From a virus: a DNA stretch of 64,000 nucleotides. The translations under genes were made by a program, and so were the position numbers. The notes beneath the pieces were generated by a model, which was given only the letters and a program-made list of their open reading frames with translations, was not told the origin of the DNA and did not search any database. Position 1 is the stretch's first letter, and every line of letters begins with the position of its first letter. Below, in pieces: positions 5,648-59,261 of the stretch. The stretch covers positions 2,570 through 66,569 of IMG/VR virus record IMGVR_UViG_3300021420_000028, one strand, 5' to 3'.

Positions 5648-6669
5648 TGCGCGTCGCGCTGATTCTCACAACGATCAATATCCCTACGGTCCTCTCCCTC
5701 TATCGGGTGCACGATCCGGACGTCCGCTTCTTTGTCGCCGGGGATTACAAGACCCCGGTGGGGATTGAAGGGTTCTGGCACGATTTAGACAACTGCGAGT
5801 ATTATTCTCCTGAGCGGCAGAAAAATTATTTGAGTTATAAGTGTTCCGAGTTGATCGGCTGGAACACGATCGCCCGCCGCAACATCGCCCTCCTCGAAGC
5901 TCTCAAATGGGGTGCGGAATTGATCGTCAGTATCGATGACGACAATATTCCTTTGGGCGCGGCGTACTTCGACTGTTACAGATTCTCCTTTTTAGGAAAT
6001 TATGCAGGACTCAAGGCGCAACCGTTTGGTAATTGGTTCGATCCTGGACGTTTATCTTTTCCCAGGGACAGGAGCGGTGTCAGCCAGCGCGGTTTTCCAA
6101 GCCAGTGTTGGACTGGTTCGCCGCGAATCACTTCAGTGGTCGGCGCTAAGATCGGCGTCGCTCAAGGCACGATTCTATTTGATCCAGATACTTCTGCGGT
6201 TGATCGGATTTCACAACATCCTGAAGTGCATCAGGTCAGCGAACTCCTGCGCGCCGGCATTGTTACTGATCCTTGTGAGTGCTACGCGCCAATAAACACG
6301 CAAAATTTAGCGTTTGTGCGCGAATTGGCACCGTGTTTCTTGATGGTCCCGTTTTACAAGAGGTTTGATGATATCTTTGGCGGATTTGTCGCACAGCGAA
6401 TTATGCGCGAGCATGGTTACCACGTTCATTTCGGGCAACCGTTCGCGGCACAAGAAAGAAATGCGCACGATCTGTTGAAAGACTTGGAAGCAGAACTGTG
6501 GGGCATGCAGCACACACTGGAATTCGCGGCGTGGTTGGATGGGTTCTTAGGACAGACGAGCGTAATTGGAATGCTACGGGTCATGGCGACTAATTTGCCA
6601 AAGTTTATCCCAACTAGTGTTCAGGAATTGTGGCTCGCTTGGTTGCAGGATTGTGAGCAGGTGTTGTAA
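5647..6669 (+). CDS. STELLO/DUF288-like or GT75 (RGP/UDP-arabinopyranose mutase)-like glycosyltransferase
   Basis: TTINIP, VAGDYKTP, ARRNIALL, SIDDDN, RGFP, NTQN, RFDDIF and QERNAHDLLKDL motifs. Confidence 0.75.
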   Translation: MRVALILTTINIPTVLSLYRVHDPDVRFFVAGDYKTPVGIEGFWHDLDNCEYYSPERQKNYLSYKCSELIGWNTIARRNIALLEALKWGAELIVSIDDDNIPLGAAYFDCYRFSFLGNYAGLKAQPFGNWFDPGRLSFPRDRSGVSQRGFPSQCWTGSPRITSVVGAKIGVAQGTILFDPDTSAVDRISQHPEVHQVSELLRAGIVTDPCECYAPINTQNLAFVRELAPCFLMVPFYKRFDDIFGGFVAQRIMREHGYHVHFGQPFAAQERNAHDLLKDLEAELWGMQHTLEFAAWLDGFLGQTSVIGMLRVMATNLPKFIPTSVQELWLAWLQDCEQVL

Positions 6670-7184
6670 TGCGTAAGATTTTGCCTCCTGTTGAATACTT
6701 GCTGGCGTGTTTTTCATACAACCCGTCGACGGGGGATATGGTTTGGCGGCATCGACCGCGAGAACATTTCGTGAGTAAGCGAAGTCACACTCTTTGGAAC
6801 GCTAGGTACTCTGGTACTAAGGTAGGATATTTGGTAGCTTCTGGGCATCTGAACACGTCCATTAACGATTCGCATTTTTTGCTGCATCGTATTATTTGGA
6901 AAATGATGCGTGCAGAGGAGCCGCCCGAGATCGTAGATCATAAAGACCGTGACCCGCTGAATAATAAATGGCATAACTTGCGAGAGGCAACAAAGGCGCA
7001 AAATAACGTAAACGCCCTTAAAAAAGACCGCGGGGTATATTTTGACCCGACGCGCGGTAAATGGGAAGCGGCTGTAAAGGTCAATCAGCAAAAGATTCAT
7101 CTTGGGCGGCACGATACGAAGGCGCGAGCATTGGCAGCGAGAGCGGCGGGTGTTCGCAAGTATTTCGGAGAATTTGCTCCATGA
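6669..7184 (+). CDS. HNH homing endonuclease with C-terminal AP2 domain
   Basis: LHRIIW...VDHKDRDPLNNKWHNLREAT..QN, then GVYF..RGKWEAAV...IHLGRH. Confidence 0.9.
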   Translation: MRKILPPVEYLLACFSYNPSTGDMVWRHRPREHFVSKRSHTLWNARYSGTKVGYLVASGHLNTSINDSHFLLHRIIWKMMRAEEPPEIVDHKDRDPLNNKWHNLREATKAQNNVNALKKDRGVYFDPTRGKWEAAVKVNQQKIHLGRHDTKARALAARAAGVRKYFGEFAP

Positions 7185-9174: not shown

Positions 9175-10172
9175 AACGCGTTCTCATCACTGGCGCTGCC
9201 GGCTTTGTCGGGCGCGCCTTCACCCGTCGCTTCGTTCGCGATGGCTGGGAAGTCGTCGCGCTCGACAACATGAGTGCCGGAGAACGCCTGCATAAATGGC
9301 ACGACCCAGTATTGCCCTATTTGGCGCGTTTTGCCCCGCCATGGGATGTTCGTCGCGGGACGCATTCCATGGACATTCCAGATATGTACGATCTTGTCAT
9401 TCATTGTGCCGCTGTTGTTGGCGGCCGACTCAAACTGGATGGTGATCCGCTCGCGGTCGCGACAGACCTTGCGATCGACAGTGATTTTTTTAATTGGGTC
9501 ATCAAGGCGAAGAACAAACCGAAGGTGATCTACTTCTCGTCCTCTGCCGTCTATCCCGTCGAGTTGCAGCAGCGCCTGCAGTACATCAAGCTCGCCGAGT
9601 CGCTTGTGACCCAAGGCGCCACCAAGTTCGGCCGCCCGGATGTCACGTATGGATGGGCCAAGCTGACGGGCGAGTATCTAGCGCATCTCGCAGTCAAGCA
9701 GTACGGCGCCGACGTCCTGATCTATCGACCGTTTTCCGGCTACGGCGAGGATCAGTCCTTCGACTATCCCTTCCCGTCGATCATCCGCCGCGTCGTCAAT
9801 CGGGAGAACCCGATCGCGATCTGGGGTTCCGGGGAACAATGTCGCGACTTCATTCACATCGATGATATCGTCGAAGCGGTCATGCAGAGCAAGGACGTTT
9901 TGAAGCCTAGCGATACGCTCAATCTTGGTACGGGCGTGCCGACGTCGTTTACTCATTTGTCGTGTGCGGCATGGAATCTTATTTTCGATCCCGAGATAAA
10001 ATACTACCCGCCTACTATAGAGTGCGACACTACCAAACCCGAAGGCGTCTTCTACCGTGTCGCTGACACCTATAAGCTGCGGCAGTTCTACAAGCCCAGG
10101 ATCACCTTGGAAGAAGGGATCAGGCGGGTGGCGAAACACTTGACGGAGGCAAAAAAGAAGTGTAGTGAATAA
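9171..10172 (+). CDS. NAD-dependent NDP-sugar epimerase/dehydratase (extended SDR)
   Basis: TGAAGFVG Rossmann motif, SSSAVY, YGWAK (YxxxK), WGSGEQCRDFIHIDD. Confidence 0.92.
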   Translation: MKRVLITGAAGFVGRAFTRRFVRDGWEVVALDNMSAGERLHKWHDPVLPYLARFAPPWDVRRGTHSMDIPDMYDLVIHCAAVVGGRLKLDGDPLAVATDLAIDSDFFNWVIKAKNKPKVIYFSSSAVYPVELQQRLQYIKLAESLVTQGATKFGRPDVTYGWAKLTGEYLAHLAVKQYGADVLIYRPFSGYGEDQSFDYPFPSIIRRVVNRENPIAIWGSGEQCRDFIHIDDIVEAVMQSKDVLKPSDTLNLGTGVPTSFTHLSCAAWNLIFDPEIKYYPPTIECDTTKPEGVFYRVADTYKLRQFYKPRITLEEGIRRVAKHLTEAKKKCSE

Positions 10173-10179
10173 CACTACA
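10140..10179 (+). promoter_or_regulatory. promoter with palindromic operator, copy 2
   Basis: TTGACG 10140-10145; TGTAGTG-aataa-CACTACA 10161-10179. Confidence 0.6.
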
Positions 10180-10190
10180 TGGAGGGAGTC

Positions 10191-10343
10191 ATGCGGCGGC
10201 ACCAGCATAAACGTCCAGCTAAAACGGCAGAGTGGAAAGTGCGTCGAGGCTCTCGTATTGTAGCTACGACTCAAGATTCCAAACGAGAGTATTGGATTCA
10301 CGCGACTAAAGGTTATCGATCTTACCGAAAGGTATCGCCGTGA
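10191..10343 (+). CDS. small basic hypothetical protein (50 aa)
   Basis: MRRHQHKRPAKTAEWKVRRGSRIVATTQDSKREYWIHATKGYRSYRKVSP*; GGAGGGAG RBS; GTGA coupling to the recombinase. Confidence 0.55.
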   Translation: MRRHQHKRPAKTAEWKVRRGSRIVATTQDSKREYWIHATKGYRSYRKVSP

Positions 10344-11050
10344 TTTGCGCCTACGCCCGCACCTCGACGCTCAAGCAGGCTGGTCCCGACAAGACCACGA
10401 TCGCGGAGCAATTGGCGAAATGCAAGGCGATTGCCGGACTGCGCGGCTCGGCCGGCAAGTACGATTTTCAAACTTACACCGATGCCGGCGTCTCCGGGTC
10501 TACCCCCCTGAGCGAGCGCCCCGGAGGCAAGGATCTCCTTGCCGCGGTCAAGCCGGGCGACATCGTGATCGCCGCCAAGATGGATCGCCTTTTTCGTTCC
10601 GCATCCGACGCGCTCGCGACGATCGAGCGGTTCAAGAAGCAGAAGATCGGCTTGATCCTATGCGACATGAGCGTGGAGCCTGTGGCCGACAGCCCTGCGG
10701 CGACGATGTTTTTCAACATGCTGGCTGCTTTTGCCCAGTTCGAGCGCGAACGTATCCGCGAGCGCATCGCCGACGGCAAGCGCGCCAAGCGCGAGCGTGG
10801 CGGGCACACGGGCGGCCCGGTCCCGTACGGCTGGCGCAAGGTTGGAGAGGGCACCAGGGCCGTCCTCGTGCGGAACGAAGCCGAGGAGGAGCATGCGCGT
10901 GCGGCCCGCTGGTTCCGGGACCAGGCGCGTGCTAGAGGTCCGACGCGCATCGCCGAGCTGATGTCGCATGAGGGTATGCTGGGGCGAGACGGCAAGCCGT
11001 ACACGGCCTTGGCGGTGTGGCGGATGCTCAAGAGGAAGGAAGCTGCGTGA
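10340..11050 (+). CDS. serine recombinase (resolvase/invertase-type)
   Basis: YARTST catalytic motif, DAGVSG, KMDRLFRS, FAQFERERIRER, GGPVPYG. Confidence 0.92.
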   Translation: MICAYARTSTLKQAGPDKTTIAEQLAKCKAIAGLRGSAGKYDFQTYTDAGVSGSTPLSERPGGKDLLAAVKPGDIVIAAKMDRLFRSASDALATIERFKKQKIGLILCDMSVEPVADSPAATMFFNMLAAFAQFERERIRERIADGKRAKRERGGHTGGPVPYGWRKVGEGTRAVLVRNEAEEEHARAARWFRDQARARGPTRIAELMSHEGMLGRDGKPYTALAVWRMLKRKEAA

Positions 11051-24045: not shown

Positions 24046-24119
24046 CAATGTGCTTGCGTTCGACATATGAGCAGCCTAGTGTGGGGACGGTTAAACCCGT
24101 TTTCCATAGGAGTCTTCTC

Positions 24120-24815
24120 ATGACGCGGATGACGCTCGAACGAGTTACGCTGACCTGTATGAATTGCCAGCAAGAATTCTCAGTTAACGGCGCGCAGGCG
24201 AAAGCTTATGAAGCGCGTCAAGGCAAGGTCCGAAAGTATTGTTCTTCCGAGTGTTTTAACGTGCACAGGAAGATTCCGATTCCGACTTTTAACTGTGCTC
24301 ATTGCGGTAAGCTGACTGAACGAAAAGGTTATAAGAACGCAAAGGGTTCGTTTGGCATTTTCAACTATAAAACTAAGTTCTGTTCGATTAGCTGTTCGGC
24401 CAAGGCGCAGTTTCGAAGAAAAGATTTCGGTGTCGGACGAATTGATAAGTGCGGTTATCGCTTGTTGAAGCGCGGCGGGCGCTACGTTCCTGAGCATCGG
24501 CTCGTGATGGAAGCGCATATTGGGCGCTTGCTGCGTTCCGAAGAAACCGTTCACCATATTAACGGCCTGAAGTTGGATAACAGGCTAGAAAATTTGGAAC
24601 TTTGGGCCGCGAATCACGGCAAAGGGCAGCGAGTTTCCGATCAAGTGGCGTGGGCGATCGAGGTACTTAAGAATTATCCCGAATACGCTCGCGAGCGAGG
24701 GTTCGAGATTCAGCCTGTGAAATCAGAGGGTTCGACATCCGCTGTCCCTCCGGCAATCTTGCACATTTCAGAAACGGAATCTGCGTACGTTTCTGGTTGT
24801 GCCGGAATAACTTAA
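24120..24815 (+). CDS. HNH homing endonuclease with Zn-finger repeats
   Basis: CxxC...YCSxxC repeats; EHRLVME..IGR.L...[19 protein letters not shown]. Confidence 0.9.
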
Positions 24816-30309: not shown

Positions 30310-32574
30310 ATGCCCGTCCAAGGCAACCCCTACGTTCCTCCCGCTCCCGGCCCCCTCGTCATGGAAATGTTCGAGGGGATGAACACGAGCACGTCTCGCG
30401 TCGGCATTCCTGATGAACAAGTCAAATGGCTGGACGGGTTCTTCCCTTTAGATCACCACAACCTCCGCACTCTCTACGACGTCGGCGCCACGCTCTACAC
30501 CGCGGTCGGCACGACGATCGTTTTCTTCGGCTTCGTCAACATCTCCTCGACGCCCTACGCGATTATTTTCCAGGCCGACGGCTCGGTTGTCGCGGTCAAC
30601 GTAAACACGGCGGTGGTCACGACTATTTTAGCGGCAGGCACGATCGTGGTGCCATCTCAGCTCACGATTGGGCTCTCTCAATGGGGGCAGCAATACGCCA
30701 TTATCGTCGCTAATCAGGCGAACGGCTACTGGTTGTGGGATGGCTTGATTACCTATAGCACGGGGACGATCGCGCCAAACGTAGTGTTGAGCAACAATGG
30801 TTCCGGATATGTGTCTCAGCCGGCCATAGGACTGATCGGCGGTAGTGGTTCCGGCGCCGTATTTACCTCTTCTATAAACAACGGATCGGTAGTATCCGTT
30901 CAGATCGTCAATCCCGGTACCGGGTATTTGGCCTCCGATACTCCTACTCTGACGTTCGTAGGCGGCAATCAGGCGGGCACCGGCGCCAGCATATACGCCA
31001 ATTTGGGACATCATGCGGGTGGTTCCGGCGCGGTTATTGTCGTGACCATGGTTTACGAACCCAATGTGCCGGCGTATAATGCTTATCCTACCTTGACCGT
31101 GCCCGGTTCAGGATACGGGCCTAATACTAAAGTAAATGTTTATAATAATGGAAACGTGGTTGTTGGTACTGCACTCAAAATAACGTGCTCAGTTGTTGGC
31201 GGTTCTATTGCCAGCATAAAATCAACTTTTCCATCGTTGTATAATACCGCAACCCCTGTAGTCACTGCGACCGTGGTGGATACCGGGTATTACGCAATAA
31301 CTTCGGCAACGGTAGATCCGTCGCACGAAGGTTCTGGATACAGCAACTACCCGGTTCTCACTGTTGTCGACGTAAACGGAAGCATTCAATCCTCCCCCGT
31401 CTTGACAGCCAATGTGACGGGTGCTGGAGCCTCTGTTACTTCTGTAAACATAATATCGGGCGGCATATTTGCAGCCAACGTGGCTCCGACAGTGGTAATT
31501 ACCGACGTCGCGACCAATGCTGCCGGCTCTATCACTATCATGCCCTATGGCGTCAGCGGCAACGCGGTCGAAACCTATTCCGGCCACGTGTGGGTTGCCA
31601 ACCAGAACAATTACAGCTGGTCCGCGCCCGGCTCGGCGTCCAACTTCGCCACCAGCGCGGGCGGCGGCTCGGCACAGTCCGCGGACTCCTACCTCAAGAT
31701 CGGCTACACGCGCCTGATCCAGTCGAATGGGTTTCTCTATCTGATCGCCGATTCCTCGATCGACTACATCTCGGGTGTCCAGACGGCGGGCACGCCGCCC
31801 ACGACGACCTTCACCAAGCAGAATGCCGACCCGACGATCGGCACGCCCTACCCGTGGTCGGTCATCCTGCATGGGCAGGATCTGCTGTTTTCCAATTCTG
31901 TCGGCATTTATGGTGTTGCCGGAGCTCGCCCGACCAAGATCAGCGCCATGCTGGATGGTATCTGGGGCACCGGCAACCTTAACCTGTCCGCAGCGCATGC
32001 GACGATCTTCAAACGTGAAGTGTGGATGACGCTGACGACTTTCGTCAATCCGCTCACAGGCGCGACGGTGACGGAGCCGCTGATGTGGGATGGCAAGCGC
32101 TGGTTTGCTTCGCCGCAGAACATGAACATGATTTTCATCGGCAGCCAGGAGCTCAATTCCGTCTTCACGGCCTACGGCACTGACGGCACGATCGTAGCGC
32201 CGCTGTTCACGACCCCGTCCACCAACTTCACCAAAGTCGTGGAGTCGAAGCTATGGGCTGAACCGGGCGGTTACCTGCTCAACAAGGCGACGGACCGCTT
32301 TTGGGCAATTGCCAATTACGCCTCGATCGCGTCGCCGTCGATCGTCCTGTCGATCGACGCCGTGTCGGCCGATCCGAACGTGGCGGGCAGCATTGTCTCG
32401 ACGTCGGCCGGCTACACGATCCCCGGTCCATCGATTACCGGGCACTGGGTCACGCCCCCGCAGGCCGTAGGCCAGCAAGGCATCCTGACGGGGATGACGA
32501 TCAAGACGAATTGCGCCGACATGACGCTGATTTCTGCTATGATCGACAACAAAATCGTCAGATACAGAGGTTAG
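30310..32574 (+). CDS. tail nozzle/tail tubular protein B-like protein with inserted GxGY repeat domains
   Basis: About 750 aa, beta-rich, FEGMN near the N-terminus; lies between the adaptors and the ejection proteins. Confidence 0.6.
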   Translation: MPVQGNPYVPPAPGPLVMEMFEGMNTSTSRVGIPDEQVKWLDGFFPLDHHNLRTLYDVGATLYTAVGTTIVFFGFVNISSTPYAIIFQADGSVVAVNVNTAVVTTILAAGTIVVPSQLTIGLSQWGQQYAIIVANQANGYWLWDGLITYSTGTIAPNVVLSNNGSGYVSQPAIGLIGGSGSGAVFTSSINNGSVVSVQIVNPGTGYLASDTPTLTFVGGNQAGTGASIYANLGHHAGGSGAVIVVTMVYEPNVPAYNAYPTLTVPGSGYGPNTKVNVYNNGNVVVGTALKITCSVVGGSIASIKSTFPSLYNTATPVVTATVVDTGYYAITSATVDPSHEGSGYSNYPVLTVVDVNGSIQSSPVLTANVTGAGASVTSVNIISGGIFAANVAPTVVITDVATNAAGSITIMPYGVSGNAVETYSGHVWVANQNNYSWSAPGSASNFATSAGGGSAQSADSYLKIGYTRLIQSNGFLYLIADSSIDYISGVQTAGTPPTTTFTKQNADPTIGTPYPWSVILHGQDLLFSNSVGIYGVAGARPTKISAMLDGIWGTGNLNLSAAHATIFKREVWMTLTTFVNPLTGATVTEPLMWDGKRWFASPQNMNMIFIGSQELNSVFTAYGTDGTIVAPLFTTPSTNFTKVVESKLWAEPGGYLLNKATDRFWAIANYASIASPSIVLSIDAVSADPNVAGSIVSTSAGYTIPGPSITGHWVTPPQAVGQQGILTGMTIKTNCADMTLISAMIDNKIVRYRG

Positions 32575-36358: not shown

Positions 36359-38244
36359 CTGACGTTTTTGTAAACGATCCTCCGGCGCTTCCTGGTCCAG
36401 CCCTGTCCTGGAAACCGGGCGAGCCGCCTGTCGGACAGTCGGCCCTGCCGCAAGCCGCCCCTCCGCCCGGTCCCGCCCTTCCCGACTACGCGCCCTACGG
36501 CGGCGCCAACATGACCGGCCTGGCGCCGGGTTCCCCCGGCTATGTGTCGAGCCGCCTTGCCGGCGAAGCCGCGGCAAAGGGCGAGGCGCAAACTGACTTC
36601 GATCGGCGGGCGGAAGACCAGATGAGACAGGATCGCCAGAAGATGGCGCAATCCTACGACCTGGAGGCGGCCGATGCGCGCGATCCTGCCCTCCGGCCGT
36701 GGAACGCCGAGCAGGAGAAAGCCAAATACATCCGCGGCCCCATGGAGAACTTCGGCTCGGTCGGCATGATCTTCGCCATGGCTGCCTCCGCGTTCACCCG
36801 CACGCCCATGATCAGCGCCTTGAATGCGGGTGCCGCCGCCATGCAGGCAACTGCGCAGTCCGACGAGAAAGCGTACAAGCAGGCTTTCGACGCTTGGAAA
36901 AGCAATTCCGACCTGGCACTCAAGCGCTTCGACATGGAGCGCAACCTCTATGAGGACGCCAACAAGCTGCTGACGACCGACATGGGTCTCTGGAAGCAGA
37001 AAAGCTTGATGCTCGCGGCGCAGTTCGACAACCAGAAAATGCGAATCATGCTGGAAAACGGCATGGACAAGGAGGTGCTGGACGCGCAGGCCGCGCAGTT
37101 CAAGGCGGCGGAGGAGATGCGCAAGTCGAAGTTCGAGTTCGAGAAGCAGGATTTCTTCCGGCAGCAGTACGCGGATTCGATCAAAGAGTATCAAGACGCC
37201 CATCCGGGGGTGAACGATAAGAACAAGACGCCGGAATACGTGGCGTTTAAGGCCAAGGCGTGGAGTGATGCCCTGCGCGCTTCGCAAGGCGAGATGACCC
37301 CGGAGCAGCTCGCGCAGCTTCGCGCGACGGCGACAGGCTCGGCAGCAACGAAACCCGGCACTCCGTCGTCCGATAATGCCAAAAGAGACGCCGATATACG
37401 GGCGGCGAATCCCGGAATTAGCGATACCGACGTCATAAAAGAACGCAACCGGCAGATCAAGGAAGAAAAAGAAACCAAGCCGACCATGAATGCTGCTGGT
37501 ATTGATCTCGCTGCCAATATGTTCATCAAAGGTAATCCGGCCGCCATGACCAACGTCGGACGCGGAGTGCAAGGCGCGGCTAACCTCAACGCCATAAGGA
37601 ATCGGGCCGCCGAGCTTCTCCAAGAACGCGGTTTGAATCCTGAAGAATCGGCCACATTGATCAACGAGAATACCGCGGCGTTCCAAGGCGACAAGCGCGG
37701 TGCGGCCAATTTGGCGTTGCGTTCTTCCCAGATCATCGGGGCATCGACGGTCGCGCTGAACACCATGGATCGCGTGCTTGAAACGTCCAGGAAGGTGTCT
37801 CGCACCGAATTTTCGGACATCAACAAGATATTGTTAGCCGGTGAACAGCGCACCGGAGATACGAACGTCATCAATTACGGTATCGCGTTGAATACGCTTA
37901 TTAACAACTATGCTCGGGCAATTGGTGCCGGGAGCAACGCGCTGACCGACACGGCCCGCAGGGAAGCGCACGAATTGCTCGAAAAATCGTGGAGTCAAGG
38001 TCAGATCGAGTCCGCGATCGGGCAGTTGAAGAAAGAACTTCATGACGAATTGAGAGGCGCGCAGGAAGCGCGCAAGATTTGGGCGGAAGGCGGTTCGGCA
38101 GTGCCTGAATTGGGCAGCGGAGCCGTTACAGGAACTCCGAAAGTGCCGCCTGTGAATCTTCTCAAGGAAGGCACGATTACCCCCTTCGGCGATAAGGGTG
38201 ATTGGACTTTGCGGAACGGTAAGCCTGTTCGGGTTGATCAATAA
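36355..38244 (+). CDS. DNA ejection/internal virion protein
   Basis: 629 aa, helical, Ala/Gln/Glu-rich; position in the module. Confidence 0.6.
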   Translation: MTDVFVNDPPALPGPALSWKPGEPPVGQSALPQAAPPPGPALPDYAPYGGANMTGLAPGSPGYVSSRLAGEAAAKGEAQTDFDRRAEDQMRQDRQKMAQSYDLEAADARDPALRPWNAEQEKAKYIRGPMENFGSVGMIFAMAASAFTRTPMISALNAGAAAMQATAQSDEKAYKQAFDAWKSNSDLALKRFDMERNLYEDANKLLTTDMGLWKQKSLMLAAQFDNQKMRIMLENGMDKEVLDAQAAQFKAAEEMRKSKFEFEKQDFFRQQYADSIKEYQDAHPGVNDKNKTPEYVAFKAKAWSDALRASQGEMTPEQLAQLRATATGSAATKPGTPSSDNAKRDADIRAANPGISDTDVIKERNRQIKEEKETKPTMNAAGIDLAANMFIKGNPAAMTNVGRGVQGAANLNAIRNRAAELLQERGLNPEESATLINENTAAFQGDKRGAANLALRSSQIIGASTVALNTMDRVLETSRKVSRTEFSDINKILLAGEQRTGDTNVINYGIALNTLINNYARAIGAGSNALTDTARREAHELLEKSWSQGQIESAIGQLKKELHDELRGAQEARKIWAEGGSAVPELGSGAVTGTPKVPPVNLLKEGTITPFGDKGDWTLRNGKPVRVDQ

Positions 38245-41200
38245 TGGCGACCGAACTCCCAGAAATCATCGTCACGGCGGACGAAACGCCGAAAAAGCCG
38301 CCTGTTGATACGGGACCTGCCGCAGTTGTCGCTCAAGAAGGGCCTGCAACCGCCGTCGAGGACGGCGAGTGGAAGGTCAGCGGCCCTGAGCGCCCCGATA
38401 CTGATGAGTGGAAGGTCAGCGGCCCTGAGCGCCCCGACAAGTCGACCGTGCTCGGTCAGATGGGGACCGGGTTCATGGACCCGGTCGAGGGCGGCGGGCA
38501 GTTGATCTCTAACATACTCCCCAAACCAGTGCGCGAGACGCTCGATACGTTCAATAACTGGGCGGCCAAGCACTCGGGCGGATTGATTCGCGAACTGCCC
38601 CCCGGTGGCAAAAACCAGCAAATGCAGGAGCGCGAGGCCGCAATCCAGGAACAGCGTGGCGCCAACAAGGATAACATCGATTGGTCGCGCATGGGCGGCG
38701 ACCTGCTTAACCCGATCAACTATGTTGGTGGAGGTGGGATCGGCGGCGCAAGCAAACTGGTCAATGCCGGCCGCGCATTCTTAGGCGGTGCGAGTTCCGG
38801 CGCGATCCAACCTGCTTCCGATCCCGACTACTGGCGCGAGAAGCAGAAGCAAGTTGGACTGGGAGCAGCATTCGGTCTGGTAGCAGGCGCGGCAGCTTCC
38901 GCGGTTGGAAAGGGCTTGGATGCTGTCGGCGCTGTTTTAGCGCGCAAGAATCCCGAATTCTTGGAAAACAACTACATTAAGGAAATAATAAAGCGTATCG
39001 GTCAGGACGAGAAAGTTGGCGGGCCTTCGGCGCAGGATATGATTGATATTGTCAACGCTGGCAAGAAACCGTTGACCTTGGCCGATGCAGCTTTACCAAA
39101 AGGGAACGTGCGAGGACTCGCAGGCAGCGTTGCTCGACAACCCGGCGAATCGAAAGCGATTGCAGCCCAATTGATAGGTAAGCGTGACGAGGCGGCAGCG
39201 CAGCGTATTCGTCAGGACATCGAAACCTACATGCACGGCGGCGATTCCGCTTACCAAACCAACGAGATGTTGCTTGCCGCGCGCAGCTCGGCATCGACTC
39301 CTGCTTATAACGCTGCTTACAAATTAAAAAACATATGGAGTCCTCGTCTTCAGCAGTTTATCGACGATCCAGATTTCAAAAAGGGACTGAATCGCGGTTG
39401 GCATCTCGAACGCCTGCGCGCCCTTGCAGAAGGGCGCAAGATCACGGCGACCGAACTCGGGGTCGATATCGACATGGAGGGTAATGTCAATCTGATAGAA
39501 GTGCCGAACATGCGCTTGCTCGACATGGCGAAGCGCGGTTTGGACGCCATGATAGCTGATACGCGCGATCCGATTACCGGACGATTGTCGGCGCACGGAG
39601 TAGCTTTGAATCAGGCGCGGCACGCCTACGTCAAGGAATTGGAGGCGCTCGACACCAGCGGTGCTTACAAGCGTGCCAGGCAGGCATGGGAAGGCCCGTC
39701 GGCTAGCCGCGACGCTGTCCAACTCGGCCGTGCCGTGTTCCAGTATTCCCCGGAAGAAATGGCGGCTGAGGTAGCGAAGCTATCGCCTGCCAACCGGGAA
39801 TTTGGTCGCATCGGCGTTGCTGACGTTTTGCAGGAAAGGCTTGCCAAGACCGGCTTGCATGGAGACGAGGCCAAGGCGATCCTTAAGAATTCGTGGACGC
39901 GAGAACAACTGCGACCGTGGTTCCGGTCGCCGGCTGATTTTGACAAGTTCGTTGATTCCATCACGACTGAAACTAAGATGTTTGAGGCTGGTTCCGAGTG
40001 GGTGGGAGGTTCGGCGACGGCCGGGCGGGTAGCTGAAGACACAGGCGGTAATGGACTGAAGGTGGCGTTTGATGCCGCCCGGATAGCGCGCGATCTGGCT
40101 AGTGGCGCGTGGGGACCTGTACGTGCGGCGGTTAATTCGTGGCGCCTTTATCGCGATCTGACGACGAAGAACGACCCCGCTTTCAATGAAAAAATCGCCC
40201 AAATCCTGTTCGCAACCCGCATCTCGCCCGAGACCGCGGCCAAATTGACCGGCAAAACCCCCCTCAATACCGTTAACCCACTGGAGAAGACCGGCGCGGC
40301 CGTGTCGGCAGGCGGCGTACCTGCCGCTGCTGCAGTGGGAGTGCCGCAGGCGCAGGATCGAGGCGGTTCTAGCGCCCCCCAACAAAATCCATCAAGTGGT
40401 AACCAGCTACCTCAAGGCAAACCAGCACCGCACGCCCAGTTGCAAAGGCCGCCCGGCGCGGTGCTGTCGGATGAGAGTCCTGATCCCGTTCGTCCCGGCG
40501 CGCAGTACGCCTCAAATGAACCGGCGAAACCCGAGAGCGCTCTGCCGCAAGAACCCTCTAATTTCCTGGCTGACGCCGATCCGGCTCAGCAGGCGCAACA
40601 AGCCCGCGAGGTCGCGGCACAGCGGCAGCGCCAGGCCGTCCAGCCCGCCGAGGGACGCCAGGAAGGCGCGTTCACCGACGCGCTGTTCGATGCGCTCATT
40701 CCCGGCCGCGCCGCTGTCCGGTCGCTGACGCAGGGCGAGTACGGGCAAGCCGCCGTGGAGGCCGGCATGTCCGCGGTGCCTTATGGCGGCAAAGCACTTG
40801 GAGCGGCGTTGCAGGCCGCGCCGATGCTGACAAAAGCCGTTGCCGCTTCTACCGCCGCCCTGACATCGTTGTTCATGGATACGTCGGAAGGCGCTTCCAA
40901 GCTCTCGCCCGAAGACCAGTCACGAATCCGGATGATGCAAGAAAAGTCCAAGCAGGAACAGCAGAACCGGGCCAAGGATGCTGAGCTGCGGAAGAAGGAA
41001 GCCGACGAAAAGGCGGATCGCGACGCCAAAGCCGCTCAAGCTGCGGCGCAGACTCAGGCTGATTTGCAGGCAAAACTTGCCCGGATCGAGGCAGACAAGC
41101 AGCGCGAGCAAGCCAAGATCGAGGACGAAAGACGCCGAGCCGAGCAAAAGGCAGCCGAAGATGCTATTATAGCTAACGCTAATGAGAACAAGCGCTTGGC

Positions 41201-41921
41201 TGAGCGGCCTTTCCGGGAGAAGCACCCGGAGGCGGCATTGGCCATGTTCATGGGCGGCATCGCCGCGGCATCAATTCTCCCCGGCGCCACTCAGGCTTAC
41301 AAACAGTGGGCGTTCAACTCGTACCTGAAGGATTGGGAAAAGCTGGACGCGGCTGCCGCGCAGGCTCTTAAAACCGGTACCCGCGAAGAGCAGCAACTCG
41401 CGGTCAACCGCTTGTCCGCCGCGGCGGCGGAATTGGCAAAGCGCGAAGGCAAGCTGGAAAAATATCCGTGGCTAACTCAGCTGGCCGCACCTACTGTAGC
41501 GATGGAGATGAGCGCGCTGCCGGCAGAAATAGACATCGCTCAACCGGTCGGCACGAAGGCACACGAGTCAGCCGTGGAGTATTATACCGACCCCGCCACG
41601 CTCGGAAGCTTGGCAGCTGTCGGCGCTGGCGGCTTTGGAGTTGGGCATTTCTCTCGCGAAGCGGCCGAGGGGTTGCTGCCTAAAGGCAAAATTCCCGCCG
41701 GCACGTCGGGCACTATCAAGACGTTCGAGGAGCGTAACACGGCTGAAGCAATCGCAGCAGAAGCTGCGGCCAAGAAGAAGGCTGAATCTGTCGCGAAGCG
41801 CAAAGCAACGCTTGAAGCGAAAAAGAAGGCCGAAGCCAAAGCGGAAAAGAAGGAAGAGGAGCCGCGCAAGGCCAAGGTACCGCGCGGCGGCTCTAAGATT
41901 TACGGACTGAGGGACGAATGA
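38244..41921 (+). CDS. large DNA ejection/internal virion protein
   Basis: 1225 aa, helical, with hydrophobic Gly/Ala segments; last of three ejection-like genes. Confidence 0.65.
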   Translation: MATELPEIIVTADETPKKPPVDTGPAAVVAQEGPATAVEDGEWKVSGPERPDTDEWKVSGPERPDKSTVLGQMGTGFMDPVEGGGQLISNILPKPVRETLDTFNNWAAKHSGGLIRELPPGGKNQQMQEREAAIQEQRGANKDNIDWSRMGGDLLNPINYVGGGGIGGASKLVNAGRAFLGGASSGAIQPASDPDYWREKQKQVGLGAAFGLVAGAAASAVGKGLDAVGAVLARKNPEFLENNYIKEIIKRIGQDEKVGGPSAQDMIDIVNAGKKPLTLADAALPKGNVRGLAGSVARQPGESKAIAAQLIGKRDEAAAQRIRQDIETYMHGGDSAYQTNEMLLAARSSASTPAYNAAYKLKNIWSPRLQQFIDDPDFKKGLNRGWHLERLRALAEGRKITATELGVDIDMEGNVNLIEVPNMRLLDMAKRGLDAMIADTRDPITGRLSAHGVALNQARHAYVKELEALDTSGAYKRARQAWEGPSASRDAVQLGRAVFQYSPEEMAAEVAKLSPANREFGRIGVADVLQERLAKTGLHGDEAKAILKNSWTREQLRPWFRSPADFDKFVDSITTETKMFEAGSEWVGGSATAGRVAEDTGGNGLKVAFDAARIARDLASGAWGPVRAAVNSWRLYRDLTTKNDPAFNEKIAQILFATRISPETAAKLTGKTPLNTVNPLEKTGAAVSAGGVPAAAAVGVPQAQDRGGSSAPQQNPSSGNQLPQGKPAPHAQLQRPPGAVLSDESPDPVRPGAQYASNEPAKPESALPQEPSNFLADADPAQQAQQAREVAAQRQRQAVQPAEGRQEGAFTDALFDALIPGRAAVRSLTQGEYGQAAVEAGMSAVPYGGKALGAALQAAPMLTKAVAASTAALTSLFMDTSEGASKLSPEDQSRIRMMQEKSKQEQQNRAKDAELRKKEADEKADRDAKAAQAAAQTQADLQAKLARIEADKQREQAKIEDERRRAEQKAAEDAIIANANENKRLAERPFREKHPEAALAMFMGGIAAASILPGATQAYKQWAFNSYLKDWEKLDAAAAQALKTGTREEQQLAVNRLSAAAAELAKREGKLEKYPWLTQLAAPTVAMEMSALPAEIDIAQPVGTKAHESAVEYYTDPATLGSLAAVGAGGFGVGHFSREAAEGLLPKGKIPAGTSGTIKTFEERNTAEAIAAEAAAKKKAESVAKRKATLEAKKKAEAKAEKKEEEPRKAKVPRGGSKIYGLRDE
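38367..38437 (+). repeat. in-frame tandem repeat, 39-bp period (EWKVSGPERPD x2)
   Basis: gagtggaaggtcagcggccctgagcgccccga at 38367 and 38406. Confidence 0.9.
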
Positions 41922-47924: not shown

Positions 47925-48188
47925 ATGAGACACAAGCGACGCCTTTTTGTTGGTCCGTACAGCCGTTGGCCGAGAAAACGTGCATATCGCTGGCGCAAAG
48001 CAACTTTATGGAATAGTCTCTCGCGGCATCGTTTTTATGTGGATCATTTGCCTCTCAAGGAGCTGACAAAAAGGACGCTGATGGTGGTGCAAAAGGTGCG
48101 CTATCTCACCGCTCAAGAACAACGAATTTTTAGTTCTGCGCTGCGCCGAAGCGTAAAAGTTGTGCACGTCGGGGCGTTACTTCTGTAA
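47925..48188 (+). CDS. basic hypothetical protein
   Basis: AAGGA RBS; very Arg-rich. Confidence 0.4.
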   Translation: MRHKRRLFVGPYSRWPRKRAYRWRKATLWNSLSRHRFYVDHLPLKELTKRTLMVVQKVRYLTAQEQRIFSSALRRSVKVVHVGALLL

Positions 48189-48222
48189 ACATAATATGAA
48201 CTGACAAAAAGGACAAACAGAA

Positions 48223-54629: not shown

Positions 54630-54906
54630 GATATGACTCCTTTTTTAGGTTTCGTTTTCGGATAAAACGCATTCGATCTCTAGCACGTTCACAGATTGCG
54701 ATCCCCCGACTTGCGCAGCTCTTCCGCAGCGCGCCGCCTAGGCTTAACTCTGACCTGTCTGCTGCCCTCCGGCACCAAACGACACCCCGGTCTCAGAGCC
54801 CGGAGCACCAGCTCCTGGTACCTCTGGAGTTTCGGGCTCCGGCAGTTCATCGTCGGCCGCTTCGACTCGTCGCATTCGAAGACGAGGTCGCCATTTTGAC
54901 GGTCGA

Positions 54907-55059
54907 TCATTTGCGGCGATCCGAGTCTGTTTTTCCGTAACGCCCGTATTCATGTTTTCGTTCGTCAAATTCGCTGCGCTCCTCAACCGAGACCCACTCT
55001 CCGTCGACGAACTCTTCGAGCACTCGCTCTCCATCAAGCTTTACATACCACCGCATCAT
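54907..55059 (-). CDS. hypothetical protein (50 aa)
   Basis: MMRWYVKLDGERVLEEFVDGEW...; GAGG RBS; stop overlaps the duplicated start (ATGA). Confidence 0.5.
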   Translation of the reverse strand: MMRWYVKLDGERVLEEFVDGEWVSVEERSEFDERKHEYGRYGKTDSDRRK

Positions 55060-55071
55060 GAGCGCCTCACG

Positions 55072-55257
55072 TTAACCCGAGTTTTTGCGGCTACACCCGC
55101 TACAAGTATGCACCCATTCGGTGCCGATCTTTTTTACGCGCCATCCGTCGCGCTTGGCCTGGTTCCAAGCCGAATTGAAGTCCGAGGTGGCGGACTCAAA
55201 GGTCTCGCCGCACTCATCGCATTCGAAGACGAGGTCGCCATTTTGACGGTCGATCAT
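55072..55257 (-). CDS. small Zn-ribbon protein
   Basis: CDECG...AKRDGW...HTCSGC. Confidence 0.75.
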   Translation of the reverse strand: MIDRQNGDLVFECDECGETFESATSDFNSAWNQAKRDGWRVKKIGTEWVHTCSGCSRKNSG

Positions 55258-55694
55258 CGTGGATTCCTACTACGATCATATTTATGGTTTACTTTTCTCT
55301 GGTAGGCGTTCTCGCAAACGCGACATCGCCGATGACCGGTCTTTTTTGCCACAATCAAATTATCGCCGTCAAGGGGGTGTCCGTTTTTGCAATGCGTTTG
55401 CCGCATTTTTGGTCCAGAAAATCCTTCTCCCCGACGCATGTTCTCGCGGTGCGTTACCGGTTCCAAATGATCTGGATTCACGCAACACGGAAGCCGACAG
55501 CGATGATCCAACTCAAGCCCGGCCGGTACAGGGCCTTTTAGTAATTCGTAAATAACGCGATGCGCTCCCCTTATTTTGCCACCTATGTTAACCCGTCCAT
55601 ACCCCAATTTATGACAATACCCAACCCATATCCAACAACCTGAATTAGGTTCTGGAATAATATTTCGTTGCATGCGTTCGGGCAAGCTTAACAT
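55254..55694 (-). CDS. HNH endonuclease (Zn-binding-loop type)
   Basis: SGCWIW..GYG, AHRVIY, LDHRC..PCCVNPDHLEPVT..EN, THCKNGH. Confidence 0.9.
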   Translation of the reverse strand: MLSLPERMQRNIIPEPNSGCWIWVGYCHKLGYGRVNIGGKIRGAHRVIYELLKGPVPAGLELDHRCRLPCCVNPDHLEPVTHRENMRRGEGFSGPKMRQTHCKNGHPLDGDNLIVAKKTGHRRCRVCENAYQRKVNHKYDRSRNPR

Positions 55695-55695
55695 C

Positions 55696-56409
55696 TTAGG
55701 AACGCCTTATATTAACTTTACGGAACCAACTTATTTTTAAACCCGGCGGCGGGCGTCCTTCGTGATCTTCCATGTACCGTCTTACAGTATCCTTTTGAGC
55801 CTGAACCATTAATATATCTGCGCCGTAAGTCGCCCAATTTTCTAAAGCCCAATCAAGCAAAGCCATTCTACCAATTTGTTTTTCGCCTTCTGAATTTACA
55901 TAGGATTCAGAATCGGGGTCAATACCCACGTTAAGCAAATTTGAAATATAAGCCGTTCCTGCATCGGTCGACAAATTTGCCTTGTCGCCGGTTCCGAGCG
56001 CATTGAGCATAGCGTGCAGCTCGGCGTCGATCGCCTCCAGGCGCGCCTTGTGAGGCGCGAGCAATTCAGCGACACGCTTGTTCGCCTCCTTGATCTTGTC
56101 CTGGAGATCGAAGTGCTCGGTGATCAGTTCTTCGGCGGTAGCCTTAATGGGAATCGGGCGCTCGGTGATCAGTTCTTCGGCGGTAGCCTTAATGGGAATC
56201 GGGCGCCCAACAGGCCCATCGTACTTCCTGCGCAACACGGCTCCACGATTTTTTACATTGTGGTGCATGCAAGCTTCGCACATTCGGTATTCGCGATTGT
56301 GATGAAAAACAATATGAGTCGCCACTGCATTGCACGGAATATAGAATCTACTCGATTGGGGCGACGCTTCTTCGCATCGCCCTTCTCCGGCTTCTAGATT
56401 TAGGCTCAT
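55696..56409 (-). CDS. replication-module coiled-coil protein (gene B) with fused Cys/His N-terminal domain
   Basis: TAEELITEH coiled coil, TDAGTAY, PPPGL...VNIRRS C-terminus. Confidence 0.65.
   Translation of the reverse strand: MSLNLEAGEGRCEEASPQSSRFYIPCNAVATHIVFHHNREYRMCEACMHHNVKNRGAVLRRKYDGPVGRPIPIKATAEELITERPIPIKATAEELITEHFDLQDKIKEANKRVAELLAPHKARLEAIDAELHAMLNALGTGDKANLSTDAGTAYISNLLNVGIDPDSESYVNSEGEKQIGRMALLDWALENWATYGADILMVQAQKDTVRRYMEDHEGRPPPGLKISWFRKVNIRRS
56116..56205 (-). repeat. perfect 45-bp in-frame tandem duplication (RPIPIKATAEELITE x2)
   Basis: 56116-56160 equals 56161-56205. Confidence 0.95.
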
Positions 56410-56446
56410 AACTCTCCCCTCTACTCTTCGGCGGTCGGTTTGCCGG

Positions 56447-56647
56447 TCACGACATCCGCCTGCACGTTACGCGATGAAACGATTTGACGGCAAGTTTATT
56501 TATATGAGGTGAATTATCGGGCGCCCATATAGAATCCAACCGCGTGTCAAGAACCAAACGCAATGCTTTTACCGCGTCTCTTTCCGTCATGGCCGCAGAT
56601 GTTGTGATCTCAACCACAACCTTATTTTTCTTTCTGAGATAATTCAT
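56447..56647 (-). CDS. cassette gene, hypothetical
   Basis: Start lies in the repeat, which provides the RBS. Confidence 0.65.
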   Translation of the reverse strand: MNYLRKKNKVVVEITTSAAMTERDAVKALRLVLDTRLDSIWAPDNSPHINKLAVKSFHRVTCRRMS

Positions 56648-56719
56648 AACTCTCCCCTTCTCACCATGTCGAGCATCAGCCCTTGAAGCGATGTCTGGGT
56701 CCCCTCTACTCTTCGGCGG

Positions 56720-57001
56720 TCATGGCTTATGCAACTTATTTCTATAATACTCGTACATTTTCTCGTCTTGCTGCCGCGAGCGTATTGCTGTTTGGCGCGC
56801 TTCCTCCACGCGTTCCAGGCGCTCGGTTGCTGTCTCCGGTCTACAAAAAGATACCGTGAGGTGCTCCCCATCGCTATCCACGGTTACTGATGCGGAATCA
56901 CGATAATTTTCCGGTACGGTTTGCAATAAAACTAAGAATTCGGCAACGCTCCACTTCGCATACCCATAGTTGTCTAGAACTTTTATTTTGATTTCTTTCA
57001 T
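56720..57001 (-). CDS. cassette gene, hypothetical
   Basis: Start lies in the repeat; RPET..E motif and charged C-terminal helix. Confidence 0.7.
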   Translation of the reverse strand: MKEIKIKVLDNYGYAKWSVAEFLVLLQTVPENYRDSASVTVDSDGEHLTVSFCRPETATERLERVEEARQTAIRSRQQDEKMYEYYRNKLHKP

Positions 57002-57014
57002 AACTCTCCCCTTC

Positions 57015-57254
57015 TCACCCCGCGTTAAAACTGGTAATCACGACACCTTCGCCAATTCCTTTTGCCGCCTCGCCTATGTATTTTACGGTCACCTGATCAG
57101 GGCTTTTTGCCCAGCAATCGTATTCGGATCCCCAATCGGGGTATTTGGACGGATGAATTTGTTGCGCGGCTTCAGCAGTTGGCGCAGCAACCACCGCGCT
57201 GTCGTAGGTATCGTAACCATTGTTTACGTCCTGTTTTATAAGCCAAAGTTTCAT
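57015..57254 (-). CDS. cassette gene, hypothetical phage protein
   Basis: MKLWLI.Q..NNGYDTYDSAVVAA...SFNAG. Confidence 0.75.
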   Translation of the reverse strand: MKLWLIKQDVNNGYDTYDSAVVAAPTAEAAQQIHPSKYPDWGSEYDCWAKSPDQVTVKYIGEAAKGIGEGVVITSFNAG

Positions 57255-57316
57255 AACTCTCCCCTCCTCACCATGTCGAGCATCATTTCCGCGCGTAGCT
57301 CTTCAACAGTAATCAT
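57251..57316 (-). other. chimeric mini-ORF MITVEELRAEMMLDMVRRGEL (gene-B-like start joined to helicase-like end)
   Basis: ATGA-coupled at both ends; 21 aa. Confidence 0.6.
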
Positions 57317-58920
57317 AACTCGCCCCTGCGCACCGCATCAAGCAGAACGCCCTGCATCGAAGTGTTGGTTTCCAACCGGCGGAACATCTCGATCTCGGCT
57401 TTGGTAGCAACCAACTGGTAAGCCGTGACCGGCCAAGACTGTCCAGGTCTATGCGCGCGACGGTTCCCTTGGATGTAGAAGCGCGTTTTATCCACGGCAG
57501 TTATCCATATTACCGTATCCGCGACAACGAAGTCATTAATCCCATGGCTGACAGACTGCGCATCGACAATCATTATCTTGAACTCCGGATCGTCGACGAA
57601 AGCCTGAATGATTGCCGGACGGTCGCTGACATTGACCGCGCCGTTAATGACGCCGCATTTCCACTTCTTCCCCAAGGTCGTTTTTAGAAAATCTATAATA
57701 CTCGTCAGCGGCGAAAAGATCAATACCTTTCTTGAGGTCGAGTTGATAATTCTTTCGACTTCCTCGTAACGAGGCGCTGCATCAACTTTATGAGCGTGAT
57801 GTCCATCGTCGTAAACCATGCCAAGACAAATTTGTAGGAATTTTTGCCGTGCTGCCGCCTCATTTATGCTGTCAATGACTTTACCACTCTGCATGGTAAC
57901 CTGCATATCGCGCTTCAACTCTGCCAGTTTTTTCTTTTGCTCCTCAGTGAGAGATACTGTGCGTTGCTGCACGGTAAATTCAGGTGCATCTTTCCAGACA
58001 TCTCTAATATCGTATCGGATAGCTGGCGCAAGAAGTCTGAAGGCTGTGTCGTAACCATCTTTGCGCGGGATCCATTTGAAATTGGAAACCTGAATCATAG
58101 TCTCTTCGCGGAACTGCCTGAAACTCTTTCCTTGGGCGTTGTTGAGGAACTTAGCAAGTCCGTAGGCATCCGTCGGTTTTTGGGCAGTTGGCGTGCCGGT
58201 AAGCATCCACGTGTACGGTCGCCTTCCGATGGCCAGTCGCGCGACCCGATGTCGCTTGGTTTGCGCATCGCAGTAGGCATCGGCTTCGTCCATGACGACG
58301 ATCTTGATTGCCTCGTCCTCGGCCAAATCTTTCGAAAGCCCGTCTAGCTCGAACTTCTTTCGCGTGTGTGCCCCGATCCCAACGCCATCCACGTTAATCA
58401 AAGCAAAATCCGGCTTCTTAGCGAGCAAAGCACGTCGCTTCTCAGCAGTCCCGTGGAGCAGCTCAAAAGAGCGTCGCCCCAGAAAAATGGCAAAGATGGC
58501 CTTTGCCCATACGCTTTCTATCACGTTCAACGGCGCCACAATAAGCGTACGCCAGCCGGGATTCTGCAACATCAAATGATCGGCAGCCCACAGCGCGGGT
58601 AGTGTTTTCATGGTTCCGGGATCGCTTAGATTGAAACAGCGCGGGTGCAATAGCTGGAAATTGCACATCACAATCTGATGTTCTAGTGGTTTGCGGCCAG
58701 GTTCAATCGGAAAATCGTAATTATGCGTCCCTATAACAGGAACTACCGGATATTGCATCCAACGCAACACTTGGCTGTTTTTCAACGTCGCCGGCACGGC
58801 AACGTAAGACCCGTTTATCTGCTTGGCCTCGGGCAAACTCTGCAACAGCTGCGCGACGTGCAAAGGAGATGGCGTCTCGTAGACGAGCAAGTTGCGCGGC
58901 TGGTCGAAGAAAAAGTTCAT
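57313..58920 (-). CDS. SNF2-like SF2 helicase
   Basis: SDPGTMKT (variant Walker A), DEAD Walker B, LTGTP, SHGIN, QGNRRAHRPGQ. Confidence 0.88.
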   Translation of the reverse strand: MNFFFDQPRNLLVYETPSPLHVAQLLQSLPEAKQINGSYVAVPATLKNSQVLRWMQYPVVPVIGTHNYDFPIEPGRKPLEHQIVMCNFQLLHPRCFNLSDPGTMKTLPALWAADHLMLQNPGWRTLIVAPLNVIESVWAKAIFAIFLGRRSFELLHGTAEKRRALLAKKPDFALINVDGVGIGAHTRKKFELDGLSKDLAEDEAIKIVVMDEADAYCDAQTKRHRVARLAIGRRPYTWMLTGTPTAQKPTDAYGLAKFLNNAQGKSFRQFREETMIQVSNFKWIPRKDGYDTAFRLLAPAIRYDIRDVWKDAPEFTVQQRTVSLTEEQKKKLAELKRDMQVTMQSGKVIDSINEAAARQKFLQICLGMVYDDGHHAHKVDAAPRYEEVERIINSTSRKVLIFSPLTSIIDFLKTTLGKKWKCGVINGAVNVSDRPAIIQAFVDDPEFKIMIVDAQSVSHGINDFVVADTVIWITAVDKTRFYIQGNRRAHRPGQSWPVTAYQLVATKAEIEMFRRLETNTSMQGVLLDAVRRGEL

Positions 58921-59261
58921 AAATCCTGCAACATTTGCTCTCGCGTTTGCAAATCGGTTTTGGTTTCGGCCTGTTGTTTTATGTAACTACACAACTCTGT
59001 AATCACCTTGTCTGCCGTCCCCCACAACGCCATTCCGCCCGCCGCCGAGATCGCTTTCATCCGCCGCATTTGCGTTGCGGTCGCGCCTTTCCCATGGCGC
59101 TTGACCTCGATCGAGACGAACTTGCCATCCAAGCAGGCAAGGATATCCGGGACGCCCGACTTGCCGTAGCCGAACGTCATTGGTTTGACGTACCAGCAAT
59201 TGGGCAGCGAATCTAGGTAGCGGCAGATGTCCTGTTTTTCCCACGCTTCAGGGGTTCGCAT
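58917..59261 (-). CDS. VRR-NUC domain nuclease
   Basis: GKSGVPDIL..GKFVSIEVK...T..Q...I..AGG. Confidence 0.88.
   Translation of the reverse strand: MRTPEAWEKQDICRYLDSLPNCWYVKPMTFGYGKSGVPDILACLDGKFVSIEVKRHGKGATATQMRRMKAISAAGGMALWGTADKVITELCSYIKQQAETKTDLQTREQMLQDL

Follow-up and report, generated by a model that had tools for sequence, protein, structure and literature searches.

The stretch analyzed here (the window) comprises 64,000 of the 66,569 bases of the IMG/VR virus record IMGVR_UViG_3300021420_000028, which is linear according to IMG/VR and complete according to the CheckV estimate. The locus in question is the boundary between a SNF2-family helicase gene and a gene downstream of it, here called gene B, together with an array of small genes lying between the two. 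The gene order on the minus strand is helicase, array, gene B, HNH endonuclease, small genes D and E, and a 368-amino-acid (aa) protein without a known family. The array was confirmed to consist of four small genes (cassettes C1 to C4) stacked between the helicase and gene B, with C4 fused to the latter. An initial annotation of the window had described here a mini open reading frame (ORF), gene starts at 57254, 57001, 56647, and 56409, a repeat, the fusion, and the short peptides G-VRRGEL, MTAEE, and (V)TGKPTAEE-stop-RGEL, the first two, like the last, running into a stop; all of these turned out to be present at those positions on the minus strand.

The helicase ends in LLDAVRRGEL followed by the stop (..TNTSMQGVLLDAVRRGEL), and this stop overlaps the next ATG (ATGA). 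Each of the four cassettes is preceded by a remnant of a helicase 3' end, of 17 to 57 nt and of a different length at every junction, and remnants of a gene-B start, of 15 to 27 nt, stand directly 3' of C2 and C3 (Table 1). The first half of the mini-ORF in junction J1 likewise reads as the start of a gene-B allele, the third one present; its peptide matches the B start of the relative L001 in 8 of 10 residues, with the PIKP segment of L001 omitted, and the nearest start among the homologues is that of P0112 (MGMTVDELIAEH). At J2 the frame before 57001 reads G-VRRGEL and a stop. The 9-nt piece at 56700-56708 in J3 belongs to a 22-nt copy common to J3 and J4. All four cassettes are co-oriented, their stops and starts overlap or are closely spaced, and from the ribosome-binding site (RBS) plus ATGA found at each start they are predicted to be ready for translation.

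Table 1. Positions of the array, its junctions, and the neighboring features in the window (stop codons are given in words).
Feature	Positions	Strand	Remarks
SNF2-family helicase, resident allele H	57313..58920	-	Pfam SNF2-rel_dom 3.8e-13, Helicase_C 4.3e-8; phrog_62 7.5e-79
J1 (whole)	57316-57251	-	21-codon mini-ORF MITVEELRAEMMLDMVRRGEL, stop; MITVEELRAE joined to MMLDMVRRGEL, stop
J1 left	57286..57316	-	remnant of third gene-B start allele, MITVEELRAE; first half of mini-ORF
J1 right	57251..57285	-	35-36 nt H'' helicase 3'-end remnant ..MLDMVRRGEL, stop; carries RBS and ATGA of C1
Cassette C1	57015..57254	-	79 aa; phrog_5444
J2	56998..57019	-	22-nt H'' helicase-end remnant; holds C1 stop, C2 RBS and ATG
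Cassette C2	56720..57001	-	93 aa; ORFan
J3 left	56709..56723	-	gene-B start remnant MTAEE; ATGA overlap with C2 stop
J3 right	56644..56708	-	9-nt helicase-end piece (56700-56708), then 57-nt H'' remnant (TQTSLQGLMLDMVRRGEL, stop); RBS and ATGA of C3
Cassette C3	56447..56647	-	66 aa; ORFan
J4 left	56424..56450	-	gene-B start remnant (V)TGKPTAEE; GTGA overlap with C3 stop; also in L002
J4 right	56406..56423	-	18-nt helicase-end remnant, stop-RGEL-stop; RBS and ATGA of C4
C4::B fusion	55696..56409	-	237 aa; Cys/His-rich N-terminal domain in frame with gene-B core (..IPIKATAEELITEH..)
Tandem duplication of B start	56115..56204	-	perfect, 45 nt (RPIPIKATAEELITE twice); at C4/B fusion point
HNH endonuclease gene	55254..55694	-	free-standing; Pfam HNH_3 5.7e-15
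Second accretion site	54865..55257	-	between gene B and gene D; blastn against relatives, direct repeats
Family-A DNA polymerase	62698-60515	-	replication module
PD-(D/E)XK nuclease	60331-59612	-	replication module
Nuclease-like gene	59303-58917	-	replication module

We then determined where the helicase-like linkers come from. Over 22 nt the repeat is exact (56415-56436 is identical to 56700-56721). Its 16-nt core, GAGGGGAGAGTTATGA, had five matches with up to two mismatches in the 64 kb, all in the array locus, against an expectation of 0.01, and none of 100 shuffles reached five matches. For ACCGCCGAAGAR, four exact matches were found, all in the locus, plus two one-mismatch matches elsewhere, with 1.13 expected in the 64-kb window. 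Four of the ten direct-repeat families of at least 20 nt in the window fall within 54.8-57.4 kb. The linkers were compared by blastn with the helicase 3' ends of two relatives, L002 (a 66.3-kb viral contig) and L009 (a metagenome contig, the one locus returned by a metagenome scan with two peptide patterns). The 36 nt at 57285-57250 were 94 to 97% identical to these ends, and the 22 to 23 nt at 57019-56997 were 96 to 100% identical (22 of 22 nt equal L009 5764-5785), while the 57 nt at 56700-56644 were 96.5% identical to L009 5729-5785. Since the window's own helicase end showed only 74 to 77% identity to the L002 and L009 ends, the repeats derive from a foreign helicase allele, H'', and not from the resident helicase. 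Identity between the allele classes H and H'' is about 60%. The initial annotation had read a diverged helicase allele from the repeat, and exactly that allele exists in relatives: the helicase ends in ..ETQTSLQGLMLDMVRRGEL and a stop in L002 and in ..LQGVMLDMVRRGEL and a stop in L009. The similarity of the linkers extends well beyond an RBS. Viral contigs gave 0 matches to either the exact pattern of the H'' end or that of the helicase-H/B' junction. As a side observation, the helicase gene is itself mosaic, the N-terminal ca. 70 residues in L009 resembling the window and the remainder L002.

The pieces read as gene-B starts were compared with the B homologues (123 at E <= 0.001 among 176 candidates), the start alleles of which were tabulated for the 120 listed. 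MTAE, as in MTAEE of J3, begins 18 of these 120, and M..KPTAE, as in (V)TGKPTAEE of J4, begins 4; the pieces thus match real start alleles. The lengths of the helicase remnants differ at every junction, which does not fit a fixed crossover site.

A chimeric assembly had to be considered, as had an independent evolution of similar RBSs, given that the virus record was assembled from a metagenome and that related strains share its habitats (the sequencing runs containing the array stretch are soil and freshwater metagenomes). The first is contradicted by contigs of sequencing runs: a 17,493-nt k=31 Logan contig of run X1 covers 56177-58000, and hence the whole array, with no difference to the window. 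Run X1 is probably the source sample and as such not independent, and the runs may come from related sampling campaigns. Contigs from another study (run X2) cross J1 (57072-57469) and J3 (56568-56741), a contig of run X3, also from another study, crosses J2 (56897-57260), and J4 is found in the independent contig L002; runs X2 to X4 cover the stretch partly, and gaps were not counted as absence. As to convergence, the similarity runs for 22 to 57 nt at 94 to 100% identity into helicase coding sequence, and the motif is absent elsewhere in the 64 kb. The array is thus not an assembly chimera, and artefact or convergence together are highly improbable. A contig of run X3 also carries a variant of C1 in which the middle 140 nt on 57192-57051 are replaced by 32 letters, a 108-nt difference that keeps the frame.

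The relatives differ in the content of the boundary in steps of whole cassettes. In L001, the helicase of which is 99% identical to that of the window (95% DNA identity by blastn), the helicase stop overlaps the ATG of gene B, which begins MIPIKPTAEELIAEHFDL; this boundary is an empty site. In L009 the complete H'' helicase is followed directly by the start of C4 in C4::B. In L002, with a helicase 60% identical to that of the window, the order is H'' helicase, directly a C3 homologue, the J4 junction, and C4::B. The series therefore runs from none (L001) through C4 (L009) and C3-C4 (L002) to C1-C2-C3-C4 (window). A contig of run X4 carries C1 and the 35-nt remnant, and then H''-type helicase sequence beyond 57285; because it departs from the window exactly at 57285, in a relative C1 comes straight after an H'' end, and the window's J1 breakpoint is a derived joint. 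No relative with an H''-C2 arrangement was found among those examined. Not only content but also order varies. P0123, a homologue of C2 at 85% identity whose start was called further upstream, reads VQADVV-TGKPTAEQLIAE-SEEGRV-MKEIEIK... and consists of a C3 tail in another frame, 13 codons of a B start (VTGKPTAEQLIAE, longer than the version in J4), a helicase-end piece, and C2. The order in its contig is thus C3-C2, opposite to that in the window, with a different and longer joint, which means that such joints are recurrent. The P0123 contig is 22,907 nt long, and the C3 homologue P0126 is likewise recorded on a 22,907-nt contig. Among L001, L009, L002, the window, X4, and P0123, whole-cassette differences are bounded by linkers, and the proposal of the initial annotation that cassette content and order would vary in relatives was borne out on both counts. 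Among public phage genomes, blastn with 55600-58950 gave no match, and tblastn with the helicase gave only relatives below 60% identity.

Across the family, the helicase lies directly upstream of gene B in all 17 loci found with B, while the helicase-to-B gap ranges from 0 to ca. 900 nt with at least 10 different contents (19 family contigs including the window). It contains nothing in L001, L094, and L103, an HNH gene in L092, and various ORFans elsewhere. The helicase/B boundary is therefore a family-wide insertion spot.

Joints with the topology of the array, i.e., the start of a downstream gene standing before the end of an upstream one, are found at J1, J3, and J4, and the array-type topology recurs three more times nearby. 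The first is the 45-nt duplication at the C4/B fusion point, the unit of which is single-copy in L002 and L009 and is bounded in the window by GAGC-type microhomology; X1 unitigs cross the joint, and the repeat unitig has about twofold depth. This is the youngest joint of that topology. The other two lie in the second accretion site, which was compared at 54865-55257 in the window, 6650-7060 in L009, and 8540-8625 in L002. Gene D (55257-55072) is followed there by a remnant of a foreign gene-B 3' end (55082-55056). This 27-nt piece matches the B end of L002 at 92.6% identity and, judged by its sequence, would equip cassette E (55059-54907, 50 aa) with its RBS and ATGA. The opening 46 nt of D (55257-55212) recur at 54910-54865, where they are joined to unrelated sequence; the 45-nt duplication and this D-start copy have the downstream-start-first topology as well.

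Side observations were made at this second site in the relatives. Between B and a D-start copy, L002 retains only the last ca. 20 nt of E. The L001 gene following B starts MIDLCETLK... (L001 8069-8180 compared with L002 11258-11455) and looks like a deletion product, in which the ATGATCGAC start of D is joined to an internal ATCGAC of a 65-aa gene of L002. In L002, a 353-aa ORF opposite a long antisense ORF (9914-10975) interrupts the B-to-D region and may be an insertion element.

We propose, with a probability of roughly 0.7, that repeated unequal recombination between related, co-infecting phages gave rise to the array. In this phage family the helicase is normally linked straight to gene B via the ATGA overlap, and different relatives hold different small genes at that boundary. 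Out-of-register recombination would then join the B start of one parent to the last 17 to 57 nt of the other parent's helicase, so that parents of the form helicase-X-B and helicase-Y-B would give helicase-X-[B start, helicase end]-Y-B, with both cassettes kept in tandem. The helicase-end piece would be selected because its Shine-Dalgarno sequence (a purine-rich RBS) and ATGA could start translation of the incoming gene, while longer partial duplicates would be lost. The linkers of 17 to 57 nt could thereafter act as short homologies for the gain, loss, and reordering of cassettes. The joints may be the work of phage or host recombination or of template switching, and translation from the linkers and a benefit from the cassette genes are presumed.

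The tandem-duplication-type topology of the novel joints fits an unequal exchange between misaligned genomes, and parental arrangements occur in relatives: the empty site in L001, H''-C4 in L009, H''-C3 in L002, and H''-C1 in run X4. J3-left and J4 have in common a 22-nt joint and are a 12-nt indel apart upstream in the B-start piece; because of the common joint they look like one old joint inherited twice, the left cassette having been exchanged later by homologous recombination. At a minimum, the window thus requires four joints (J1, J2, J3-right, and J4 = J3-left), and P0123 a separate one. The initial annotation had supposed that units from related phages are stacked in tandem, with which the foreign H'' remnants, the empty site, and the parental states agree. 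Not all units are flanked on both sides: C1 has no B-start remnant after it, and C4 is an N-terminal domain fused to B. The core inference of the initial annotation is supported, none of the outcomes that it named as refuting was observed, and its interpretation as a whole is partly supported.

Several points weigh against repeated unequal recombination. Helicase-end remnants in the gap are limited to the window (four) and L002 (one) among the 17 loci, and the multi-gene gaps of L093 and L098 are without them; stacking via junction scars thus characterizes a single clade rather than the family at large. No exact donor allele for MITVEELRAE was found among the B homologues and viral contigs searched. 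Microhomology amounts to 1 to 5 nt only, at the two joints with known parents, and no recombinase of the single-strand annealing protein type was recognized in the genome by a PHROGs scan of 54 ORFs. The direction of change may also have been toward loss, since recombination between linkers could make L009 from an L002-like array. Finally, expression of the cassettes is a prediction.

The same joint of a B start to a helicase end would arise if units of [helicase end - cassette - B start] were excised as small circles that then integrated, at an empty or an occupied site, through homology in the helicase end or the B start, as with the mini-circles proposed for the PeSL (promoter early stem-loop) cassettes of T4-type phages in PMC2839356. 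The variable cassette order among relatives is what circles would allow. However, no circle- or deletion-type joint was found in the contigs of the four runs, although contigs drop rare forms, and formation of a circle itself needs the same illegitimate joint first. Nor does a simple homologous circle insertion give the arrangement of the second site, with D complete and then the B end, E, and the D start. We consider circular intermediates unlikely.

Unequal recombination could, on the other hand, have been provoked locally. Breaks made by an HNH homing endonuclease at the helicase/B boundary of co-infecting relatives, followed by imprecise repair, might concentrate joints within ca. 60 nt. 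The HNH gene of L092 lies exactly between helicase and B and is 48% identical to that of the window. The latter gene adjoins a replaced patch of gene B (ca. 55950-55696), which together with the HNH gene is 55 to 67% identical to relatives between flanks of 93 to 100% (99.3% from 55266); the HNH gene and the 3' half of B look like the pattern that co-conversion during homing would leave. HNH genes occupy different module boundaries in L092, L009, and the window, and a further position in L001 (by DNA similarity only), and nuclease genes at exchange boundaries are reported in bioRxiv 10.1101/2023.03.23.533998. Against these positional data, no cleavage site is known and no HNH remnant lies within the array. 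Such breaks would be compatible with unequal recombination rather than exclusive of it; as the cause of the joints we regard them as rather improbable.

The array also recalls integrons in that its promoterless cassettes all point the same way and follow a fixed gene. In integrons, cassettes enter a defined attachment site through the action of a site-specific recombinase, and content and order are likewise variable. A small serine recombinase/invertase gene (10340-11050; phrog_95 and phrog_125) is present, but it lies 45 kb away and was the only recombinase among the 54 ORFs scanned with PHROGs; there was no tyrosine integrase. Folding of the four junctions, on both strands where tested, was no better than that of shuffled sequences (z of -0.98 to +1.15), there were 0 inverted repeats in 56300-57450, and remnant lengths of 17 to 57 nt do not fit a fixed crossover point. 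The array is thus without IntI, attI, or an attC-like hairpin, and we see only a very slight chance that it is a true integron-like system. The wording "integron-like" of the initial annotation stands as an analogy, without the tyrosine integrase or junction hairpin of the original.

Membership in the integrons, in the PeSL cassettes, and in the morons each fails on a defining feature. PeSL cassettes of T4-type phages carry a sigma-70 promoter and a terminator hairpin, occur at many loci, and have been shown to form mini-circles, and their authors compare them with integrons (Arbiol et al. 2010, PMC2839356). As there, ORFans gather in a plastic region between core genes without a dedicated integrase, and a short repeated boundary element gives expression signals as well as homology for insertion, deletion, and reordering. 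Unlike PeSLs, the linkers of the array are without promoter or hairpin, would act at the level of translation (a predicted RBS and ATGA), and are confined to a single boundary; they are scars of a foreign allele of the flanking core genes, in which an origin by unequal recombination can be read directly. Promoter and terminator matches showed no excess (8 vs. 4.5 expected and 8 vs. 6.5 expected), and the sole match touching a junction was a 9-of-12 promoter-like sequence at 57341-57312, which overlaps the end of the helicase and the first bases of J1. The array can be regarded, by analogy, as a translation-level counterpart of PeSL cassettes.

With the morons of Hendrix and colleagues, as summarized in the same paper, the array has in common that single genes are added at boundaries by non-homologous joints and viable products are selected. 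Morons are described there as having their own promoter and terminator and often the opposite orientation, whereas the cassettes of the array are, as judged from sequence, promoterless, co-oriented, linked by ATGA or GTGA overlaps, and four deep at one boundary, with legible joints. The Botstein-Campbell linker model, in the account given by that article, has conserved flanks ensuring the correct placement and regulation of modules, as the flanks would here; unlike in that model, the linkers are secondary junction scars and not pre-existing intergenic linkers. No description of an array with linkers made of the ends of flanking core genes was found in the open literature searched, which is not proof of absence.

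Accretion of small genes in phages is usually inferred from mosaic boundaries without a trace of the event. In the array, each joint still shows which two gene ends met and from which allele. Since natural genomes show the parental state as well as one, two, and four cassettes, the addition of genes step by step can be read off the locus. Scrap from core genes appears to be reused as translation start and recombination homology, which may offer a model for hyperplastic regions beyond the T4 group that can be put to the test. A more far-reaching idea, which we put forward tentatively and with the odds against it, is that [helicase 3' end, cassette, gene-B 5' start] constitutes an integrase-free, self-perpetuating cassette vehicle and more than a passive scar: the helicase-end half would be a portable translation start, both halves portable homology by which any relative could acquire, drop, or rearrange cassettes at the helicase/B boundary, and breaks made there by the HNH endonucleases of the family might trigger the exchange. 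If true, it would be a translation-level counterpart of PeSLs and a mechanistic route for the accretion of phage ORFans.

The cassettes are early-module ORFans and as such natural candidates for tests of host takeover or counter-defense. C1 matches phrog_5444 (4.9e-19) over profile positions 1-82 of 82, its relatives are encoded in 86 of the 101 pattern stretches from viral contigs, and in the Atlas it falls in viral clusters only, without a Pfam family; it belongs to a widespread small viral protein family of unknown function. C2 and C3 are narrow ORFans kept in few relatives. C2 has four clusters at 78 to 99% identity in a set of 5.8 billion proteins, all five sequences ending in ..KP, and no relatives of it were found in viral contigs; C3 has two clusters, and its L002 homologue differs by an in-frame 12-nt indel. 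A C4-like N-terminal domain is also present on P0079, a more distant B homologue.

Gene B is a conserved helicase partner of unknown function. A Pfam search with 32 B homologues gave nothing except one chance-level match, a sequence profile search of the PDB gave nothing below E 0.2, and the AlphaFold model (predicted local distance difference test score, 88) had no Foldseek match at E <= 0.001. A wide structure search with the model reached a Z of 5.5 at best. The match to 2p2u_B, a putative Gam host-nuclease inhibitor (Z 4.8, root-mean-square deviation 4.1, 70 residues aligned), was rejected, not being above the coiled-coil background. In the Atlas, gene B leads to DUF7307 clusters, which are a lead only.

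Some minor features were recorded in the remainder of the window. HNH endonuclease genes lie at 6669-7184 and 24048-24815 in addition to that at 55254-55694. A perfect 22-nt direct repeat in the structural region (31435-31456 and 48176-48197, 16.7 kb apart) could serve as a regulatory motif. A perfect 32-nt repeat with a spacing of 39 nt (38367-38437) lies within a 1225-aa ORF (38244-41921).

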